Source: an uncultured Nitrospiraceae bacterium | GTDB lineage: Bacteria; Nitrospirota; Thermodesulfovibrionia; Thermodesulfovibrionales; Dissulfurispiraceae | Direction of reading: 5' to 3' | Assembly: GCA_963705105.1 (NCBI GenBank) | Contig: CAVPIW010000006.1 | Location: 896,001 to 960,000 of the forward strand | DNA: 64,000 nucleotides | Shown: positions 48,634 through 61,384 of the stretch, in pieces | How positions within the stretch are numbered: the first letter of the stretch is position 1 | Layout: every line of letters starts with the position of its first letter | The notes under the pieces: model-generated | Told to the model about the DNA's origin: nothing | The model's database searches: none | The model's input: only the letters and a program-made list of their open reading frames with translations | Translations under genes and position numbers: made by a program

Positions 48634-50400
48634 TCAGCGCTCCCCGGATTGACGAAGCTCCTTCAGCTTCTGCTCGACCCGGTCTTTCAGCCCCTCCTCC
48701 TTCTCGTGCTGGCGGAGGGACTTTTCATAACTTTCGATCGCCTTCGCGGGATCTCCCAGGGTCTTGTACACATCGCCGAGATGCTCAAAGAGAACGGGGT
48801 CGTCCTTCACCAGCTCCTGGGCGCGCAGCAGGGTCTTGAGAGCGTCGTCATGCCTCCCGAGCCTGAAATAGACCCAGCCGAGACTGTCGATGATGTACCC
48901 GCTGTCCGGCTTCAGATCAAGGGCCCGCTGAATGAGGGCAAGGGCTTCCTCGAGGTTGATCCCCTTGTCCGCATAGGAATAGCCGAGATAGTTGAGGGCA
49001 TCGGCATGCTTCGGGTTCAGCTCGATCGTCTTTTTGAGTGTGGCCACCAGCTCATCGAACTTCCCCGTTTTTTCATACACGACGGCCATGAGAAAGTTGA
49101 GCTCGTCATTGTCGGGGAACTTTCCGAGCGCTCCCGTCACCACCTCACCGGCCTTGCCGTAGTCCTTGAGCGATATGTATGCATTCGCCAGAAAGGCATA
49201 GATATCAGGTTTATCCTTCTCGAAGGTGAGCACCTCCTCGTAAATCCGTGCCGCTTCAGCGTACTTGTTCTGCTTGCCATAGACCGAAGCCAGGGTGAGA
49301 AAAGCGCTCACATTTTTCGGATCTGCAGCAAGGATTTTTTTCAGTTCCGCCGCCGCCTCTTCATATCGCTGCAGCTCGGCCAGGACAAGGGCGAGGTAAT
49401 ACCGGGCCGACGCGTTGTCCGGGCGGGCTTCGAGTACGAGCCTGAACTCGTCGATCGCCTTGTCGAACTGGTTCTCCTGGACATACAGGAGGCCCAGCCG
49501 CTGGTGCAGGTCGATGTTCAGAGGCATGTCCTTCGCCGCCTCTTCGAGCTCCCTGATCGCCTTTTCGTAAGACTTGTCGGCCACGTAAAGCTGGGCGAGA
49601 CGCTCCCGGGCATAGAGATTGTGAGGGTTGACGACAAGCACCTTCTTGTAATACTCCTCAGCCTCAGCGGGTTTGCCCCTGAGCTCGTTGATTATGCCGA
49701 GATTGAAATAGGCGGCATCGAAGGAGGGGTTGATCCCGATGATGGTGATGAAGCGCTCTTCAGCCTTTTGATATTTCTTGTCCTCGAGATCCATCGAACC
49801 GAGGTAATACAGGGCCATGATATTTTCAGGCTCCTTTACGAGCACGTCGTCGAAGACCGCCCGGGCCTTCCCGCTCTCCCTTTTCGTCGCGTACATCGCG
49901 CCGAGATGGAGCCTCGCATCTATCCTCTCAGGGTCTTTTGAGATCACCTTTTCGTAGAGTGGAATCGCTTCGTCGAGCTTCTTCTGTGAGCCGTAGAGCT
50001 CGGCCAGCAGCATGAGGGCCGGGATGTGATCGGACGTCTCCTGCAGGACCTTCTCGAGTCCCGCGACGGCGTCCGATATCCTGCCCAGCTTGACGTACAT
50101 CCGGCAGATCTGCGTCTTGACATGAGCTGACGACGGATCGATCTCGAGCACCTTCCCGTAATGTTCCAGGGCCGCCTCCCACTTCCCCCTGATCTCCGCT
50201 TCATATCCCAGAAAGTATTCGAGATAGGCCGACTGCACGTACTTCTCCGCTGTGTCAGAGCGCTGCGGTTTCGTTATTTCGGCATAAAAAGCGAAGACGG
50301 GGCCGCTCTGTGCAGTCAGAATGACGGACAGAAAGAGGGACAGCGAGACGATATATGCAGACATCAATAGTCTTCTCCGGCGAAAGGATTGATCTATCAT
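48634..50400 (-). CDS. Exported tetratricopeptide repeat protein
   Basis: Many TPRs and ALNYLGYSYAD...IIDSLGWVYF; typical neighbour of ispE. Confidence 0.92.
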   Translation of the reverse strand: MIDQSFRRRRLLMSAYIVSLSLFLSVILTAQSGPVFAFYAEITKPQRSDTAEKYVQSAYLEYFLGYEAEIRGKWEAALEHYGKVLEIDPSSAHVKTQICRMYVKLGRISDAVAGLEKVLQETSDHIPALMLLAELYGSQKKLDEAIPLYEKVISKDPERIDARLHLGAMYATKRESGKARAVFDDVLVKEPENIMALYYLGSMDLEDKKYQKAEERFITIIGINPSFDAAYFNLGIINELRGKPAEAEEYYKKVLVVNPHNLYARERLAQLYVADKSYEKAIRELEEAAKDMPLNIDLHQRLGLLYVQENQFDKAIDEFRLVLEARPDNASARYYLALVLAELQRYEEAAAELKKILAADPKNVSAFLTLASVYGKQNKYAEAARIYEEVLTFEKDKPDIYAFLANAYISLKDYGKAGEVVTGALGKFPDNDELNFLMAVVYEKTGKFDELVATLKKTIELNPKHADALNYLGYSYADKGINLEEALALIQRALDLKPDSGYIIDSLGWVYFRLGRHDDALKTLLRAQELVKDDPVLFEHLGDVYKTLGDPAKAIESYEKSLRQHEKEEGLKDRVEQKLKELRQSGER

Positions 50401-50421
50401 GGACAGATCTTCAGCCCTGCA

Positions 50422-50451
50422 GAAAAAGAAGAGGGGTCTCGACGAGACCCC
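50422..50451 (-). terminator. Intrinsic terminator downstream of the small peptide gene
   Basis: Minus strand GGGGTCTC-GTC-GAGACCCC followed by TCTTCTTTTT. Confidence 0.8.
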
Positions 50452-50475
50452 CGATGTAATCCAAAGCCCCGGTGT

Positions 50476-50538
50476 TTAGCAGGAGCTCTTGCACTTGCAG
50501 GTTGTTGATACCTTCTTTGAAACTTTCCTGATCACCAT
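50476..50538 (-). CDS. 20-aa Cys-rich peptide MVIRKVSKKVSTTCKCKSSC, putative RiPP precursor
   Basis: Manual translation; SD GGAGGTG about 10 nt upstream, extended -10 upstream, terminator downstream, adjacent rSAM/SPASM gene. Confidence 0.72.
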   Translation of the reverse strand: MVIRKVSKKVSTTCKCKSSC

Positions 50539-50593
50539 GTTGACTCTTCACCTCCCCTTCAAAGGGAATACGAAGGCTTCATGCCCCGCTGAC

Positions 50594-50602
50594 ATTATAC
50601 CA
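50594..50602 (-). promoter_or_regulatory. Extended -10 promoter element for the peptide gene
   Basis: Minus strand TGGTATAAT. Confidence 0.6.
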
Positions 50603-50621
50603 TAAATCAGGTTCTTCTTTA

Positions 50622-50849
50622 CCTTATCGCTGCAATACATTCCCGGGAAAGGCGGAGCGAAGATGCCACCGCAAGAGTCATTAAGTCATTGAGTCATTAA
50701 AGTCATTGTCGGCAGTCGACAGTCGGAACAAGGTCACGAATACCAGGACGGCAGCGTCGATATAAAAACGATTCCTTTCACTGACACTGACACTCACACT
50801 GACACTGTTTTCAGAGTGCTTCGCCCCGCCTTTTCATGCAACGCCCCGG
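50622..50849 (+). mobile_element. MITE-like element (LX-RX)
   Basis: Near-identical to the 41343 and 52164 copies; TSD not conserved. Confidence 0.82.
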
Positions 50850-50850
50850 A

Positions 50851-52026
50851 TCATGCCGGAAAATCCTTGAGCCCGTAAGCGGAGCATTTGTAAGGATCGC
50901 GTCTCCCCTGCCCCAAAGATGTCTCCGCCCTGAAACGGCAGCCCCCACGGCATACATCGATGTGGCCGCAGGAGATGCGCGCACATTCCAGCTCATCGAG
51001 ACGGACGGGACTGACCCGGCCCCACGCTGCGCGGAGCCCCCCGCTTACCTTCCCTGCCGGTTTGTCCCCGTAGAAGGCGCATTTGGCGACCGTTCCGTCC
51101 GCCAGGACCGAGGCGAGATGGAGACCGCAGCCGTAACCTTTACCGCCGCCATGGAGCCCTCCCCCGAATCCATAGGAAAAATAAGGGCCGGCGATCTCGG
51201 GAGGGACCTGGAAGAGCGCGTTTTCAGCGAAGCTTCCCGAGACGCAGGGGACATCGACGGTCCAGTCCCTGATGCCCATGCCCCTGAAAAGGAGATCCAT
51301 TCCGTCGAATTCCTCCAGGTTTTCCCGGTGCACCATCGTGGCGACCGAGACGGACATCCCTTCAGAAAGGGCGTCACCGATCCTGTCCATCACCTTACCG
51401 TATGTCCCCTTCCCCCTCAGGGCCTCGTGGCCGTGCTCCATGCCGTCGACACTGAACTGGATCTCGTCGACGTTGAGCCCCCTGATGAGGTCCTTCCGGA
51501 GCAGGAGACCGTTTGTAAAGAGGACCTTCCTGAAGGCGTAAAACGGCAGATCGTTGTTGAACTCCTGAAAGCTGCTGTGCAGGAGGGGCTCACCGCCGCT
51601 GATGAGGAGCCGCAGCCCCTGCATCTCCTCGAATTCGCGGAGCACGCGACGCAATGAGTCGATGGGGAGTTCTCTGTCCGAAGGCTTTCCGATGTAACAA
51701 TGCCTGCACCGGAGGTTGCACTTCGTCGTGATCTGGAGCTCGAGGTACCGCAGGGACGGGACGGGGGATTTCAGCAGAGGCGGTCTCCTGACGGCAACAC
51801 GCCTCTCCGTCAGCAGGCCCTCGGAAAGACAGTCGTCGATAAAAGACCGGTCGGCCTGCGAGCCGTCGCACCCTTCGTCGGAGGCGCATCCCTGCAGGAA
51901 GGAGAAGGCACTGTCGTCGACCTCATAGAGTTCGTCATTCTCAATATCATAGACAGAGGGTTCTTCAAGCCGTTTAAGGGCACATCTGTCTGAAAGATAG
52001 TATCGCACCATGTATTCTACCATCAT
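50851..52026 (-). CDS. Radical SAM/SPASM enzyme with putative N-terminal RRE (PqqD-like) domain
   Basis: CNLRCRHC, SGGEPLL, FTNG and FSVDG; Cys-rich C-terminus GCG...KC...EC..SC..VCRGGC...DPYKC; about 80-aa N-terminal extension. Confidence 0.9.
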   Translation of the reverse strand: MMVEYMVRYYLSDRCALKRLEEPSVYDIENDELYEVDDSAFSFLQGCASDEGCDGSQADRSFIDDCLSEGLLTERRVAVRRPPLLKSPVPSLRYLELQITTKCNLRCRHCYIGKPSDRELPIDSLRRVLREFEEMQGLRLLISGGEPLLHSSFQEFNNDLPFYAFRKVLFTNGLLLRKDLIRGLNVDEIQFSVDGMEHGHEALRGKGTYGKVMDRIGDALSEGMSVSVATMVHRENLEEFDGMDLLFRGMGIRDWTVDVPCVSGSFAENALFQVPPEIAGPYFSYGFGGGLHGGGKGYGCGLHLASVLADGTVAKCAFYGDKPAGKVSGGLRAAWGRVSPVRLDELECARISCGHIDVCRGGCRFRAETSLGQGRRDPYKCSAYGLKDFPA

Positions 52027-52163
52027 CCCTCAGCATCGGGGATCATGGTACAGCGATGCGAAATGCTTGCCCCTTCCGACACCAGGACCATGAGGGGGAT
52101 CGCTTCAGCACTCAAGAAGAGACGGATCGGCGGCCTCATAGTCCACCGGGGCAGCGAGATAAA

Positions 52164-52386
52164 CCTTATCGTTGCAATACACTCCCGGGAAAGGCGGAGC
52201 GAAGATGCCACCGCAAGAGTCATTAAGTCATTGAGTCATTAAAGTCATTGTCGGCAGTCGACAGTCGGAACAAGGTCACGAATACCAGGACGGCCGCGTC
52301 GATATAAAAACGATTCCTTTCACTGACACTCACACTGTCACTGTTTTTCAGAGCGCTTTGTCCCGCCTTTGCATGCAACAGAAAGG
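52164..52386 (+). mobile_element. MITE-like element (LX-RX)
   Basis: TAAA|CCTT ... AAGG|TTAA (imperfect TSD). Confidence 0.85.
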
Positions 52387-52524
52387 TTAAGAAAGAAACT
52401 GTCGGAACCCGGGTATGGGCCGTCCCGTCAAGGCGGCTGTTCATCGCCTGTTCGAGACAGAAACATTTTCCCGTGAGCCCGCCGCCGGGTCACTGGCAGA
52501 GCCGACGGTCGAGACCCCTGCACG

Positions 52525-52974
52525 TCACGTTCCGCGCCGCCCCACGGCGTCGCGCAACGTGGTGATCATGTGCTGCAAGATCGCCATCAACGCCGCGGCG
52601 GTCATACCGAGCATCAGCACGCCGTTCACAGCCTCGAGCGGGCCGAGCAGCCTGCGCTCGCGGCTCATCACGATGTCACCGTAACCGAGCGACGTGAAAT
52701 TCACGGCCGAGTGGTAAATCGCGTCGTACGGCTGCTCGAACTCGCCGAGTCCAAGGAAGAGCCCGCCCCACAGAGCGATTTGCACAAAGTTGCCGACCAT
52801 CATCACCACCGTCACGACGATCAACGGGGCAATGCCCACCAGGAAGCCGCGGCCACTGCCGATCACCGACGATCGCCCCACGTAGTAGCGCACGCACCAG
52901 AAGGCCACGGCCACCTGCACGATCAGGCACAGCAACGTCACCGGAAGGCCGATCAGAAAATTGACCAGTGTCAT
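52525..52974 (-). CDS. Two-TM potassium channel family protein
   Basis: YHSAVNFTSLGYGD pore motif. Confidence 0.88.
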   Translation of the reverse strand: MTLVNFLIGLPVTLLCLIVQVAVAFWCVRYYVGRSSVIGSGRGFLVGIAPLIVVTVVMMVGNFVQIALWGGLFLGLGEFEQPYDAIYHSAVNFTSLGYGDIVMSRERRLLGPLEAVNGVLMLGMTAAALMAILQHMITTLRDAVGRRGT

Positions 52975-54017
52975 GGTGTCTCCTTCGATAGGATCATAGA
53001 GGTCGCTGCCGGAGGCGATCTCCGGTCGCGCCAGCGCTCGAGCGCCCACACGGTCGCCCATGCGTAGAACGCGACACCGACGAAGAGGCTCACGCGCATC
53101 GCGGCGCCTTCAAGCACGCTCTTGCCGCTTGCGCTGTCCTCGATCGCCGGACCGAGCAGGATCAGCGCGGTGATCAGGGCGTTGCTCCAATAGGACGGCG
53201 GGTACCGGGTGCGCCGCATGCGGTAGAGCGCCGAGCCCGCCCAGAGCGACGCGGCCATCAACCACAGCACGAGCATCCACAAGCTCGGCCAAAGCGACAG
53301 GCCAAGCCAGACCGCGAGCGCGATCAGCGCTCCCATCAGCGTCGAACCGACCAGCTCACGTCCGGCGGTTCGCGCATCGGTCTCGCCGGCCTGCTGGCCG
53401 AGCGCCACCGTCTTCATGATCGCCGCCAGGTAGAATGACGGGTCCGTCAGCGCGAGCACGAACACCGGCATCACGATCAGCGTGCCGCGCAGCGCGATCC
53501 AGCGCGCCATCGCGGGATCCGGCCGGATCCCTTGCCGTGTGGCCCCCGGCGTCGGCGGGTCAGGAAAGACGGCTGCCGACACTGCGCCGACGAGCGTGCC
53601 GACAAGCACGCCGACCGCGAAGGTCTTGCTGAGTACGCCGACCAGAGCCTGCTCGGATACGCCGGCCACCGGAACCAGCGTGAAAGCCAGAACCAGGACC
53701 GTGGTCAGCGGGTTGCGCCTCAACCGCCCGACGAAGAACAGCGCGAACAGCAGCGCCGCGGTCACGAGCAGGCCGGCGAACGCGAAGTGCTGGAGCAGGG
53801 GGACCATCGTTACGCCGGCAGCGACCATCAGCGACAGCGCGCACGCGACGACCACCGCCTTCAGCAGCGGCAGCGGCGGTCCCGGCTTGGATAGTACGAG
53901 CACCGCGAGGATGCAGACGAGGTACGGAGCCTGCAGCGCCATTCCGTAAGCGACAAACGCCGCCAGGCCTGTGCCGACCGTCAGCCGCAGCGCCGCCTTG
54001 TCGCCCCGGGACATCAT
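52971..54017 (-). CDS. DUF2955/FUSC-like inner membrane protein
   Basis: Multiple TM segments; position after HlyD. Confidence 0.75.
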   Translation of the reverse strand: MMSRGDKAALRLTVGTGLAAFVAYGMALQAPYLVCILAVLVLSKPGPPLPLLKAVVVACALSLMVAAGVTMVPLLQHFAFAGLLVTAALLFALFFVGRLRRNPLTTVLVLAFTLVPVAGVSEQALVGVLSKTFAVGVLVGTLVGAVSAAVFPDPPTPGATRQGIRPDPAMARWIALRGTLIVMPVFVLALTDPSFYLAAIMKTVALGQQAGETDARTAGRELVGSTLMGALIALAVWLGLSLWPSLWMLVLWLMAASLWAGSALYRMRRTRYPPSYWSNALITALILLGPAIEDSASGKSVLEGAAMRVSLFVGVAFYAWATVWALERWRDRRSPPAATSMILSKETP

Positions 54018-55183
54018 CAGTACAGGTAGGTGACCCAGCTGACGAACCGCATGTAGAACGCGGCGAGCGCATTCATCAGCGGATGGTCGCCGGTGTAGAC
54101 CAGCACGTCGGCCTGGCCTCCGACACGCGCCATCTTCAGCCGCGGGAGTTCGGCGGGGTCGAATTCGACGGCGACCGGGATGCGCTGCGCCTGGCGCAGC
54201 CAGTCGCGGCTGTTCTTCACGACCGGCAGCGTTCCGGGCGGCGAAGTCTGCTCGCCGCCGACGCCGATGCCGATGCTGCGTACGCGACCCTTCAGCACTT
54301 CGCCCGGCAACACGTCGAGCACGATCGCGACCTCGTCGCCGGGACGGACATTGCCGATGTTGTTCTCGGTCAGGTCGGCGCTGATCCAGAGGTCCTGCAT
54401 CGCAACTAGCGTCATGACCGGCGCACCGGGCTGCGCGAACTGCCCCACTTCGGTGCGCAAGTCGGTGACGACGCCGCGCACCGGCGCCAGCACGCGGGTG
54501 TGGCGCAGGTCCAGTTCCGCCTTCTCGACAGCCGTCACCGCGCCGCGCAGCTGCGAGTTCTCGCCGCCGCTGCTCCCGGCCGCCTCCTGGGCTTGCCGCA
54601 GGTCGGCTTGCGCACGGTGCACCTTGCTGCGCGCTTCTTCCCGAGAGGCCTGCGCCATTTCCAGCCGGCGCACCGAGATCGTGCCCGGATCTTCCCGGTA
54701 GAGACCTTCCAGGCGACCCGCATCGCGCTCGGCGAGGTCGAGGCCGGATTCGGCCACCGCAAGCGAGGCCCGCGCCGCGTCGACGGCCGCCGCCGACGCT
54801 TGGACCGAACTGCGGACCGATTCGAGGTCGGTGCGCGCCCGCTCCAACGCGATGCGATAGGGCTGCGTGTCGATGTCGAACAACCGCTGGCCGGGCTGCA
54901 CCTCGTCGTTGTTGCGGATGTGCACCGCCGTGACCTTGCCCGCAACCTCGGCCGCCACGGGCACGACAAAGGCCTGCAGGCGCGCCTGCGACGTGCTTGG
55001 CGTCAGGCGGTCGCCGACGAAATAGAACGTGAGGCTCCCCACGATGAGCGCCGCGATTACGACTGCACCCACACGGGTCCCGCGTCCCGTCGGCGAACTC
55101 TTCGCCGGCTCCGCCGCTGTGGTTGCATCCCCAGCCTGGCCGGCGGCCGGCGGAGCGGACGTTGACGCTGGATCCTGGTTCAT
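54017..55183 (-). CDS. HlyD family membrane fusion protein
   Basis: VAAEVAGKVTAVHIRNND.V..GQ.LF.ID, APVRGVV and WLRQAQRIPV; start MNQD behind GGAGGAG. Confidence 0.9.
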   Translation of the reverse strand: MNQDPASTSAPPAAGQAGDATTAAEPAKSSPTGRGTRVGAVVIAALIVGSLTFYFVGDRLTPSTSQARLQAFVVPVAAEVAGKVTAVHIRNNDEVQPGQRLFDIDTQPYRIALERARTDLESVRSSVQASAAAVDAARASLAVAESGLDLAERDAGRLEGLYREDPGTISVRRLEMAQASREEARSKVHRAQADLRQAQEAAGSSGGENSQLRGAVTAVEKAELDLRHTRVLAPVRGVVTDLRTEVGQFAQPGAPVMTLVAMQDLWISADLTENNIGNVRPGDEVAIVLDVLPGEVLKGRVRSIGIGVGGEQTSPPGTLPVVKNSRDWLRQAQRIPVAVEFDPAELPRLKMARVGGQADVLVYTGDHPLMNALAAFYMRFVSWVTYLY

Positions 55184-56784
55184 CTTGTCTCCTCCGGCAG
55201 CGGTGGAAGGAATTCGGTCGCCGGTGACGGAAGGGGCGCCGTCAGCAGATTTCGCCAGTCGCTGCGCTCGGACATCGCTGCCTGCGTGGCATCGTCGAGC
55301 ACGGGCCGCAGCCGGCCAGCCTCCCAGCCGCCCCCCAATGCCTTGTACACGGCGATCAGGTTCTTCGCGACGTTGCCCTCGCTTGTCACCAGGCGCTCTT
55401 GCTGGTTGAACAGCGCGCGTTGCGAATCGAGCACACGCTGAAAGTCGACCAGCCCCTCGCGATACTGAAGGGTGGCGATGTCCAGCGAGCGGCGCGCCGC
55501 CTTTACCGCCTCGCGCAGGATGTCGACCTGCGCGCGACTGCGTGCGAAGCCCGTGGCGACGTCGTCCAGTTCGCGAGCGGCCCGCAGCACCACGTCCTGA
55601 TACTGCTCGTACAGTTGCTGGAAGCCGGCATCCTGTACAAGCACCTGGTTCGTTAGGCGGCCGTAGTCGAACACGTTCCACACCAGCGCCGGCCCGAGCA
55701 CCCAGCCGAGCGTGCTGCCCGTCGAACCGACCGAGGCGGCCGACAGCGCTAACGATCCGGCGAGGGCGATCGAAGGATAGAGCGCCGCCTCGCTGACGCC
55801 GATCTGCGCCGACTGCGCGGCCAGCTGCAATTCGGCCGCGCGCACGTCGGGACGCCGGCGCAGCAGCGCAGCGGGCAGCCCGTCGATCACGCTTAGCGGC
55901 GCATCGGGAATCTTCGCACGCCCACTGCTCATCTCTGTCAGCGGTCCTGGCGGGCGCGCGAGCAGCACGCACAACGCGTTCTGCGCCTGGCGCAGGCTGC
56001 TTTCCAGCTCCGGAATCGTGGCCAGCGTGCTCAGGTACTGCGACCGCGCCTGCTGCACATCGAGTTCCGAGTCGTTGCCGCTGCGGAACAGCCGTTCGGT
56101 GATCTCCAGACTCCGTTGCTGGAGGGCGGCGTTATCGTGCGCAAAGTCAAGGTGGCGCTCGATTGTGCGGATTGCCGCGTAGAGACTCGCCGTCTGCGCT
56201 GCCACCAGCACCTGGACGTCATCGTACTGCGCGATGCTGACGAAGTACGCGGCGTCGGCGGATTCGATGCCACGCCTGAACTTTCCCCAGAAGTCGATCT
56301 CCCAGGCGATGTCGAAGGCCACTCCCGCAGACCAGTAAGATTGGCCGCGGTCGTCTTCCGCGCGCCTGAAAACCGCTTCGCGGCTGCTGCTGCCCTCGCT
56401 GCCCACGCGCAGCACCTCGCCCGTCACCTGTTGCAGCTGCGGATACAGTGCACTGCCGGCGATGCCGAGCCTGGCGCGCGCCTCCATGATGCGCATGCCG
56501 GCGATCAGCACGCCGGGATTCACGCGCTGCGCCTCGCCGACCAGGCGGTCGAGCGCAGGGTCGCCGAACGTGCGCCACCACTCGTCGTGCGGCACCGGGG
56601 CGCGAGGCGGCGCGGCGTCGACGAGCGCACGCCACTCCCCGCCCGGCCAGTCCCGCAACCACGGCACCTGCGGGCGCGCGAAATCAGGTCCGACCGTTGT
56701 GCACGCGCCGAGCGCGAGCGCGGCAGCCAGTGCCATCAGTGACAACAGAGGGCCGCGCATCGCGGCCGTCGCCGAGCGTATCAC
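55180..56784 (-). CDS. Outer membrane efflux lipoprotein (NodT/TolC family)
   Basis: Lipobox LGAC, WW..FGDP.L, WEIDFWG, RRPDVRAAE and YKALGGGW motifs. Confidence 0.92.
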   Translation of the reverse strand: MIRSATAAMRGPLLSLMALAAALALGACTTVGPDFARPQVPWLRDWPGGEWRALVDAAPPRAPVPHDEWWRTFGDPALDRLVGEAQRVNPGVLIAGMRIMEARARLGIAGSALYPQLQQVTGEVLRVGSEGSSSREAVFRRAEDDRGQSYWSAGVAFDIAWEIDFWGKFRRGIESADAAYFVSIAQYDDVQVLVAAQTASLYAAIRTIERHLDFAHDNAALQQRSLEITERLFRSGNDSELDVQQARSQYLSTLATIPELESSLRQAQNALCVLLARPPGPLTEMSSGRAKIPDAPLSVIDGLPAALLRRRPDVRAAELQLAAQSAQIGVSEAALYPSIALAGSLALSAASVGSTGSTLGWVLGPALVWNVFDYGRLTNQVLVQDAGFQQLYEQYQDVVLRAARELDDVATGFARSRAQVDILREAVKAARRSLDIATLQYREGLVDFQRVLDSQRALFNQQERLVTSEGNVAKNLIAVYKALGGGWEAGRLRPVLDDATQAAMSERSDWRNLLTAPLPSPATEFLPPLPEETR

Positions 56785-57913
56785 TCGAGGTGCCCGGCGT
56801 CCGCGTTGGCCGGCGGGAGCTTCGCCTCCGATTTTTCTCCGCGACCCAGCTCATGAAGAGCTGGTAGCCCAGCGCCAGCAGCGTCGCGCCGACGAACATC
56901 CCGAGAATGCCCGCAGCCGCCATCCCGCCGAGAGCGCCGAGCAGAATGACCGGCATCGGCGCCTCGACCCCGCGGCCCAGCATCAACGGCTTGAGGACGT
57001 TGTCGGCCATGCCCGAGACGATCAACAGCACAGTGTAAGCGATCGCCTCGAACGTCCCGTAGGTGCCGGTCCACCAGATATAGCCGATCGCCGGCAGAGT
57101 GACGATGAGCGCCGGCACTTGGGCGATGCCGAGCACCAGGACGATGGCCGCCAGCGCGCCCACCCAAGGCACGCCGGCGATCAGCAGGCAGACGCCGACG
57201 ATGATGGCCTGAATGAACGCGACACCGATGACGCCTTGAGCGACCGCGCGGATCGTCGCGGTGACAAGCACGGTATACTCGGCGCCGCGCTCATCGCCCG
57301 CGAAGCGCCTGAAGATCGACTCGCAGCTCCGCGCGCCTGCCTCCCCGAAGGCCATGACGATCCCGGCGATGATCAGCGCGGCGACGAACAACAGGAGCCC
57401 GGTGCCGATGCTGGCGACAAAGCCGAGCGCAGCCTTGGCGATTTCGCCGAGCTTCGGCTGCATGCTCTGCACCAATCCCGGCAGATCCGCGTAAGCCTGC
57501 GACCAGACGGCGTACACCTTACCGCCGACCACCGGCCATTGAGCCACCGATTCGCGCGGTGCCGGAATCTTGAGCGTGTTGTTCTGCACGTCGATGATTA
57601 ACTGTTGCAAGGAGTCGCCCAGCGAACTCATCAGCAGGGCGGTCGGCACGACGATCACCATGAAGCCGAGGAGCACCAGCAGCGTAGCCGCCAGCCCCTG
57701 CTTGCCGCCGATCTTGCGAGCCAACGCCTGATGCAGCGGATACAACGAAACGGCCAGGATCACCGCCCAGATCATCAGCGTCAGGAACGGCGAAAAGACC
57801 TTAAAGCACAGGAGGGCCAGGGCGAGGATCAGGCCGGCACGAATCAGGACATCCAGCAAAAGGGATGCTAACCGGTGTTCGAGTTCTTGATCAAGCTGGG
57901 GGGGGGTGTTCAT
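56684..57913 (-). CDS. AI-2E family transporter
   Basis: PFL...WAVILAV..YP and DNVLKP.MLGRG...GG...GILGMFVG motifs; the C-terminus may be frameshifted. Confidence 0.88.
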   Translation of the reverse strand: MNTPPQLDQELEHRLASLLLDVLIRAGLILALALLCFKVFSPFLTLMIWAVILAVSLYPLHQALARKIGGKQGLAATLLVLLGFMVIVVPTALLMSSLGDSLQQLIIDVQNNTLKIPAPRESVAQWPVVGGKVYAVWSQAYADLPGLVQSMQPKLGEIAKAALGFVASIGTGLLLFVAALIIAGIVMAFGEAGARSCESIFRRFAGDERGAEYTVLVTATIRAVAQGVIGVAFIQAIIVGVCLLIAGVPWVGALAAIVLVLGIAQVPALIVTLPAIGYIWWTGTYGTFEAIAYTVLLIVSGMADNVLKPLMLGRGVEAPMPVILLGALGGMAAAGILGMFVGATLLALGYQLFMSWVAEKNRRRSSRRPTRTPGTSSDTLGDGRDARPSVVTDGTGCRARARRVHNGRT

Positions 57914-60873: not shown

Positions 60874-61384
60874 AAGCCACCTCTTTCACTTGTTCCATTC
60901 TACCATGCCTGAATACGCCAGTGCACATAAAATGTGGCATCTTGCAAAGAGAGGTGGTCCCCATTGGTTGGACAGTTTGATGGCTGATTTAAGGTTGGAA
61001 CCACCCTTCATCATGCCACCATCAGTTGTGCAGAATAGCCTGCACGGGGTAACTTCCAGTATGCCTCATAGGGCATCCTGTCTCCAGAGATGAATGCGGG
61101 CGCTCCTCATTGTATTCCCCGATCCATTTGCCTATGCCATTCCTGCGGAGACAAACAGGGACAACTTTTTATCATGCTAGTTATACTCCTGCTAAACCTA
61201 GTCGCGAACAGGTCTGACTGAAACGATAGAGGGTTCTTTGTCAAGAGTCAAGACGCGGACCATTTTCGCTTTTTATTCCTAACTGAGTGTGACCTCTCTT
61301 CCCCGCTGCACTATTTTTTACCATTTAATGATGTTTATCGAAAAATTGCGGAAGAAGAACCAGTCGCCCGTGGGTGAAGTTGAA

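Follow-up and report, generated by a model that had tools for sequence, protein, structure and literature searches.

We consider a stretch of 64,000 nucleotides (the window) from the genome of an uncultured Nitrospiraceae bacterium, in which a 20-codon gene for a peptide with three cysteines lies downstream of, and on the same strand as, the gene for a radical S-adenosylmethionine (SAM) enzyme with a SPASM domain. The peptide, the enzyme and a third, Cys-rich protein, encoded on another contig of this genome, are inherited together as one system, in bacteria and in archaea. The best reading of these sequences is an undescribed intracellular family of peptides that are ribosomally synthesised and post-translationally modified (RiPPs), likely thioether-crosslinked and metal-binding. 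The two genes in the window are:

50476 to 50538, minus strand: precursor peptide gene, 20 aa, with the basic N-terminal part M-x-I-K/R-K-V-x-K and the core C14-K-C16-x-x-S-C20-stop
50851 to 52026, minus strand: radical SAM/SPASM enzyme, 391 codons (likely start at 52011), with a predicted N-terminal RiPP recognition element (RRE) at about residues 6 to 70

The peptide gene

The reading frame at 50538-50476 (minus strand), which translates as MVIRKVSKKVSTTCKCKSSC, is skipped by the open reading frame (ORF) track and had been proposed as a gene in a first-pass annotation made from the letters of the window. It is a real conserved gene. When the surroundings of enzyme homologues are scanned for conserved short Cys-rich ORFs, as that annotation had suggested, the outcome is positive: the peptide is present in 50 of the 78 loci that hold a relative of the enzyme, shortly downstream of it in 49 and upstream in one. 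Some of the 28 peptide-less loci run into a contig edge, and in 23 of the 27 genomes behind them the peptide is found elsewhere (in 21 by pattern and in two by a profile hidden Markov model, HMM). The copy in the window is the only one in its genome. In Thermodesulfovibrio, a lone peptide gene stands before the same TPR gene as in the window.

The codons of the peptide core vary mostly at their third positions, with an entropy over 173 distinct peptide genes of 1.21 at the third codon position, 0.29 at the first and 0.24 at the second. The search pattern that gathered these genes demands C, C, S and C, which makes the invariance of those four residues among them partly circular. The initial DNA pattern for the peptide gave false matches in 9 of 113 genomes and the HMM was used instead; the HMM searches are independent of the position of the enzyme gene.

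None of 38 family peptides reaches a Pfam or NCBIfam family (the best is a single row at E 0.25), an exact look-up of seven peptides in a collection of 15 billion proteins finds none of them, and a signal sequence is missing from the peptide. Of the metatranscriptome or metagenome runs, two cover small shares of the stretch, with no contig spanning the peptide gene, and are uninformative either way. Full-text literature searches, including searches for the exact motifs, return no description of the peptide or enzyme family; supplementary tables lie outside their coverage, and those of radical SAM RiPP atlases in subscription journals may list the peptide. Selenocysteine read-through was considered and rejected, the collected peptides having ordinary Cys codons and no TGA at the Cys positions.

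The radical SAM/SPASM enzyme

The enzyme scores 65.9 bits on the Pfam model Radical_SAM (PF04055, cut-off 29.5), and the three cysteines of its CxxxCxxC motif (C103, C107 and C110 in the 391-aa numbering) are invariant in 58 of 58 sequences. The SPASM model TIGR04085 is passed marginally (27.3 bits against a cut-off of 27) and the Pfam scan of the enzyme gives no SPASM match, while seven SPASM cysteines (C300, C316, C348, C353, C359, C363 and C381) are invariant in the 58 sequences, as is H292. The earlier description of a same-strand CxxxCxxC radical SAM gene with a SPASM tail, upstream of the peptide, agrees with these results. A seven-Cys SPASM domain is tied, in the account of PMC6231123, to an open cluster site that binds a substrate Cys.

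The structure model of the enzyme, built from the 58 sequences, has a predicted local distance difference test score (pLDDT) of 94.9. Its N-terminus is modelled as strands at residues 3-6, 10-14, 18-22 and 27-30 with helices at 33-42 and 55-63 (pLDDT 94-97). The top structural match is SkfB (PDB 6efn; Z 25.9, root-mean-square deviation 4.8, 319 aligned, residues 8-360), SuiB matches over residues 4-381 (PDB 5v1q; Z 25.3, root-mean-square deviation 4.1, 350 aligned), and the C-terminal domain aligns with the SPASM domains of CteB and anSME. The N-terminal domains of SkfB and SuiB are described as RREs, and the RRE of CteB as placed elsewhere (PMC6231123), which explains why the CteB match is only partial, from residue 84 onward (Z 23.8). 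Since the SkfB and SuiB alignments span the N-terminus, the N-terminal domain of our enzyme aligns with their RREs. The call is made from the whole-enzyme model, through the aligned ranges covering those two N-terminal domains; by this model the enzyme carries a predicted N-terminal RRE-like domain, and the putative RRE of the first-pass annotation is borne out.

To judge by their record titles, the relatives of the enzyme are almost all from Nitrospirota, with cultured Thermodesulfovibrio and Dissulfurispira among the carriers, and close homologues are present, by source name, in Promethearchaeota too. Neither viral contigs nor plasmids hold a relative.

Co-inheritance of the peptide, the enzyme and a Cys-rich protein

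Among 251 Nitrospirota genomes, the enzyme is found in 113, the peptide in 111, both in 110 and neither in 137. Kin within Nitrospirota are not independent, and the co-occurrence was therefore retested in three distant groups. In the archaeal phylum of Methanoperedens, the enzyme and the peptide occur in the same 7 of 161 genomes, five of which have the adjacent order peptide, small protein, enzyme. In the phylum of a 'Deltaproteobacteria' metagenome-assembled genome (MAG), 22 of 201 genomes have the enzyme and all 22 the peptide (21 by HMM, one in the flank); one enzyme-negative genome of this phylum matched the peptide HMM, with an internal stop in that match. In the actinobacterial class of a Gaiellales MAG, the enzyme is present in 14 of 106 genomes and the peptide in all 14 (11 by HMM, three in flanks), with no HMM match to the peptide in the 92 enzyme-negative genomes. 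The two genes are often unlinked in the genome, and their co-occurrence persists despite this physical separation. A single peptide copy is near-universal in several Nitrospirota families (19/21, 10/10 and 45/54); the overall distribution is patchy, with whole Nitrospirota families that have no trio and losses inside families.

The pair had been described at first as a minimal system of peptide and maturase. That description does not hold, because a third conserved gene exists, in this genome on another contig (G000:C2, locus L285:5971-6282). In deltaproteobacteria and Nitrospirota its product is a protein of 105-130 aa in two units, with eight cysteines invariant in 45 sequences; in archaea it is half this size (50-60 aa, three cysteines), with one such unit, and its gene lies between those of the peptide and the enzyme. 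In the sequences P0125, P0131, P0132, P0135 and P0145 it is fused to the N-terminus of the enzyme. Of the 251 Nitrospirota genomes 107 have it, and the enzyme is present in 104 of these; all three genes are found together in 103 genomes and none of them in 135. The short form of the protein may escape the profile used. It matches no family in Pfam or NCBIfam and only unnamed clusters in the Atlas, and among solved structures it has no fold match above Z 3.2, which is no proof of a new fold.

In this genome the third gene begins within the end of a neighbouring gene, cutA (L285:5660-5974, G000:C2). The latter is found in 0 of 98 other loci tested and is for that reason not counted as metal evidence.

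Extra peptide copies in heavy-metal gene clusters

The HMM search of Nitrospirota yields 22 extra peptide copies, of which 20 were fetched and 19 contain the peptide by pattern. Fifteen of these 19 lie at most 4 kb from a motif of a heavy-metal P-type ATPase, YHS, MerR or multicopper oxidase, while the same markers are near one of the 50 enzyme-linked copies and none of the 20 unlinked main copies (with short flanks); the background in the window's own genome is 3.8%, by looser motifs. A Pfam scan was run on 78 ORFs selected from the 206 of these loci. At nine extra-copy loci it confirms ATPases that carry a His-rich N-terminus or a YHS, HMBD or HMA domain, and it also shows a multicopper oxidase (one), MerR, outer-membrane efflux proteins and YHS-reductase fusions. 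The peptide itself differs as well, with a histidine at position 17 in 18 of the 19 extra-copy loci versus 0 of the 50 enzyme-linked copies. In archaea, the trio at L213 lies directly behind a heavy-metal ATPase gene.

Two further genes recur in these clusters. A fusion of a YHS domain with a pyridine nucleotide-disulphide reductase stands beside His17 copies, as does a Met-rich protein without a Pfam family (L265:3810-4874, L273:8191-9255, L274:6091-7275, L275:5217-6410, L276:3705-4793 and L284:3419-4477). The YHS/reductase fusion could keep the cysteines of the peptide reduced. One heavy-metal gene cluster, L275 (G262:C77), holds two different peptide copies, at about 3407 and 5091 (minus strand).

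Putative expression signals and leader RNA

Around the peptide gene the following elements can be read:

50549 to 50555, minus strand: Shine-Dalgarno sequence GGAGGTG, 10 nt ahead of the peptide ATG
50594 to 50602, minus strand: extended -10-like element TGGTATAAT, read from the sequence
50432 to 50452, minus strand: intrinsic-terminator-like hairpin with a T-rich tail, 3' of the peptide gene
50552 to 50587, minus strand: two-hairpin leader motif, a putative cis-regulatory RNA, with loops AUGAA (50582-50578) and UUGAA (50562-50558)

The first-pass annotation had credited the peptide ORF with its own ribosome-binding site, extended -10 element and terminator, and all three are located. A similar Shine-Dalgarno element precedes nearly all homologous peptide genes, and an element similar to TGGTATAAT lies upstream of many, often overlapping the last enzyme codons. 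A -35/-10 scan, which requires both hexamers, gives no promoter and does not pick up TGGTATAAT, and since four terminator-like sites are found against a shuffled mean of 2.0, the hairpin at 50452-50432 alone is not beyond chance.

Of 177 distinct peptide genes, 69 have a hairpin with an A-N-G-A-A loop in the preceding 80 nt, where shuffles lead one to expect 2.1, and 27 have two or more. In 31 leaders, pairing holds in 90% of the cells and both sides have changed in 8 of the 12 pairs, figures that are inflated by the selection of these leaders for showing the motif. For the leader in the window, the fold is not better than that of shuffled sequences (z -0.78). The Shine-Dalgarno sequence is overlapped by the second stem, so that a bound protein could gate translation. 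Rfam, searched over 50300-52600, gives nothing near a gathering score, and no regulon emerges in the own genome, where one pair of tandem ANGAA hairpins is found elsewhere, unlike the motif. In L088, L089 and L117, which are of the Thermodesulfovibrio type, three tandem AUGAA-loop hairpins stand ahead of the lone peptide gene.

The surrounding DNA

From the stop of the enzyme gene to the peptide gene there are 312 nt, which house a repeat:

50618 to 50845, no strand assigned: dispersed composite repeat between the two genes, outside the system; relatives are without it

A second copy (52163-52379) lies just upstream of the enzyme gene. The two ends of the repeat are modules with 128 and 210 copies in the genome, nine copies being near full length. 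The element had been called a miniature inverted-repeat transposable element (MITE), a name that it does not earn because no terminal inverted repeat pairing the ends (at least 14 nt) is found in either copy; what is seen is a dispersed composite repeat. The near-full copies cluster within about 20 kb here (also at G000:C6:928860-929056, 937339-937560 and 942296-942493), and the modules are spread genome-wide in hundreds.

A GC-rich operon at 52528-57913 of the window (minus strand) encodes an outer-membrane efflux protein, an HlyD-type protein, a membrane protein and an ion-channel-domain protein. It lies about 500 nt upstream (GC 0.675 vs 0.598), is found in 0 of the 78 homologous enzyme loci and was probably acquired separately. 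The earlier statement that no exporter or protease is adjacent thus misses this efflux/HlyD operon, and is right in that none is conserved across the 78 loci (ABC-transporter motif in 2, C39 motif in 0). From the position beside core genes an intracellular or housekeeping role had also been proposed. The core-gene position is lineage-specific, the TPR gene downstream of the peptide being found in 17 of 98 loci tested; the intracellular part is kept, as the product is probably intracellular because the peptide has no signal peptide and no protease or exporter is conserved nearby.

A proposed mechanism and its alternatives

We somewhat favor the explanation that the peptide, the RRE/SPASM enzyme and the Cys-rich protein are one system that makes a small intracellular cyclic peptide, probably binding a soft metal, e.g., Cu(I). 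That the peptide is the substrate of the enzyme is very probable, a thioether as the product is slightly more probable than not, and a role in handling copper or another soft metal is about evenly balanced. In such a system, the basic N-terminus of the peptide (residues 1-9) would add a beta-strand to the RRE, like CteA on CteB. Cleavage of SAM would then lead to abstraction of a hydrogen from a core residue (the candidates are K15, residue 17 and S19), and the radical would be captured by a Cys thiol held at an auxiliary cluster, giving a thioether within the C14-K-C16-x-x-S-C20 core. Bonds of this kind define the sactipeptides and the ranthipeptides, in which the Cys sulfur is bonded to the alpha carbon and to a non-alpha carbon respectively (PMC10114670). 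The remaining cysteines, plus His17 in the extra copies, would bind the metal, and the Cys-rich protein, to judge from its fusion to the enzyme in some relatives, may be the enzyme's partner and bind metal or Fe-S.

Several points weigh against this explanation. As to the metal, the window's own copy has no metal-gene neighbours, and, within flanks of 1.5 kb, only one of the 7 peptide loci in archaea and 2 of the 24 in deltaproteobacteria show a metal marker. The 15 of 19 extra copies are not independent events, because certain genes recur from one metal cluster to the next and the clusters may go back to a few mobile islands; YHS is not specific to copper, and that the pumps are is a prediction from their domain make-up. 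As to the chemistry, the enzyme meets no curated cut-off among the NCBIfam maturase models, so that its reaction is not readable from family membership. SuiB, a maker of C-C links, is an equally good structural match; it is uncertain whether the first auxiliary cluster has an open site, since C261 (49/58) or the invariant H292 could be a fourth ligand; and S19 is weaker as an acceptor because it is replaced by Cys in two actinobacterial peptides. As to the pairing, among the 251 Nitrospirota genomes there are three in which the enzyme is present with no detected peptide, and one with the peptide only.

The question then is whether the same genes could serve another chemistry or another purpose. 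It is possible, though unlikely, that the same trio converts the core cysteines into thiooxazole-type heterocycles or makes some other non-thioether change, giving a bufferin-like copper chelator. An RRE/SPASM enzyme, SbtM, can make this ring (PMC11002830), which counts against the thioether as well as for the heterocycle; the Ser-Cys end of the peptide is conserved, and the heavy-metal surroundings of the extra copies agree with thiooxazole RiPPs, which require the heterocycle to bind metal (PMC11626156). However, our enzyme reaches 37.7 bits on the SbtM model TIGR04082 (cut-off 350) while two other genes of the genome pass it, its closest solved structures are SkfB, SuiB and CteB, and the signal sequence of bufferin precursors is missing from the peptide. 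The two passing genes, candidates for a thio/seleno-oxazole maturase, are at G000:C12:184426-185961 (698 bits) and G000:C17:55840-57381 (694 bits).

We regard as quite unlikely the explanation that a modified peptide does a job without metal, being a conserved peptide that acts inside the cells of anaerobes as a signal or like a cofactor, the metal-island copies being a specialised offshoot or passengers. The near-universal single copy in several Nitrospirota families would fit such a job, as would the 49 of 50 enzyme-linked copies with no metal marker nearby and the separate regulation suggested by the peptide's own promoter-like element, leader hairpins and terminator; the patchy distribution, however, with its family-wide absences and losses, argues against an essential role, and the His17 change, for which a passenger has no need, tracks the position in a metal cluster. 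It is most improbable that the peptide is left unmodified, as a plain Cys-rich ligand or subunit for metal or Fe-S, with the 8-Cys protein or a small molecule as the real substrate of the enzyme. Crosslinking by radical SAM/SPASM enzymes can extend to larger Cys-rich proteins (CrpC on CrpA; PMC13692751), extra cysteines are tolerated at positions 17 and 19, and only about five residues separate the putative leader from the core. The fusion of the Cys-rich protein to the enzyme nevertheless fits a partner better than a substrate, the RRE goes with a conserved leader-like N-terminus on the peptide, and the enzyme is tracked more tightly by the peptide (110/113) than by the Cys-rich protein (104/113).

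Returning to the thioether-linked, metal-binding peptide, a bolder form of this explanation, which we put forward tentatively as less than probable, is a cytoplasmic copper-buffering RiPP of anaerobic bacteria and archaea (Thermodesulfovibrionia-type Nitrospirota, sulfate-reducer-type deltaproteobacteria, Methanoperedens and other archaea). The peptide would be a 20-residue 'radical-SAM-made metallothionein', with one maturase serving scattered precursors that include the His-variant copies of the copper-efflux islands, a metal-binding partner of no known fold and a two-hairpin leader that gates translation. If the explanation is right, the system would be a RiPP family across the divide between bacteria and archaea, with a precursor among the shortest of radical SAM maturases and a need for a Cys-rich partner that is unclassified. 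How Cu(I) is buffered in the cytoplasm of oxygen-avoiding microbes rich in Fe-S would then have an answer open to testing. Such a family would be missed by cluster-based mining, its genes often not being clustered.

Comparison with known systems

The first-pass annotation had heard in the basic leader and the CKSSC tail an echo of SCIFF with its CKTSC motif, but neither SCIFF model matches these genes. The precursor model TIGR03973, which describes six cysteines in about 45 residues, has no match at the peptide gene (20 aa, three cysteines) at E <= 10, and the enzyme is not among the seven own-genome matches to the maturase model TIGR03974 at E <= 0.001, none of which exceeds 425 bits. Nor does the geopeptide model TIGR04229 match at the peptide gene (E <= 10). 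Elsewhere in the genome this model gives two weak matches in tandem (G000:C2:60867-60929 and 61060-61122, each with 16.9 bits against a cut-off of 30), which lie immediately upstream of a further radical SAM/SPASM gene (about C2:61451-62422), possibly a second peptide-maturase pair.

The system shares with SkfB and with CteB/SCIFF (PDB 5wgg, 5why), the top structural matches, the combination of an RRE, a radical SAM domain and a Cys-rich C-terminal domain, as well as a Cys-containing precursor with a basic N-terminus; the seven SPASM cysteines are common to thioether formers (PMC6231123). It is unlike them in the absence of HMM membership, in a 20-aa precursor with three cysteines that ends in a terminal Cys, and in its co-inherited third Cys-rich protein, scattered genes, archaeal presence and lack of a conserved protease or exporter. 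With SuiB/StrB the structural match is over the whole length, including the N-terminal domain, and their precursor is similarly short. The SuiB/StrB enzymes link Lys to Trp, whereas our peptide has no aromatic residue, and no exporter is conserved nearby.

As in SbtA/SbtM (TIGR04081/TIGR04082), a radical SAM/SPASM enzyme would act on the cysteines of a small peptide (PMC11002830); unlike SbtM, our enzyme is about 130 aa shorter than the 516-position model, and no TGA stands at the Cys positions of the peptide. The CrpA/CrpC pair of Methanococcus voltae (TIGR04463) is likewise an archaeal RRE/SPASM enzyme with a Cys-rich substrate, joined by ranthionine links (PMC13692751), although CrpA is a large protein. 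TIGR04463 is not among the best 25 NCBIfam matches of our enzyme, and the main text of that paper makes no mention of Archaeoglob-, Methanoperedens, Nitrospir- or Desulfo- (PMC13692751). Finally, the bufferins, which are made by MNIO/DUF692 enzymes, have in common with our system a Cys-modified peptide (predicted here), a partner protein and a link to copper stress (PMC11626156). The enzyme class is another one, bufferins are exported by means of a Sec signal peptide, which our peptide lacks, and the putative copper role of our peptide is read from gene context; as copper-binding RiPPs with modified cysteines, the bufferins provide the precedent for the metal-binding product proposed here (PMC11626156).

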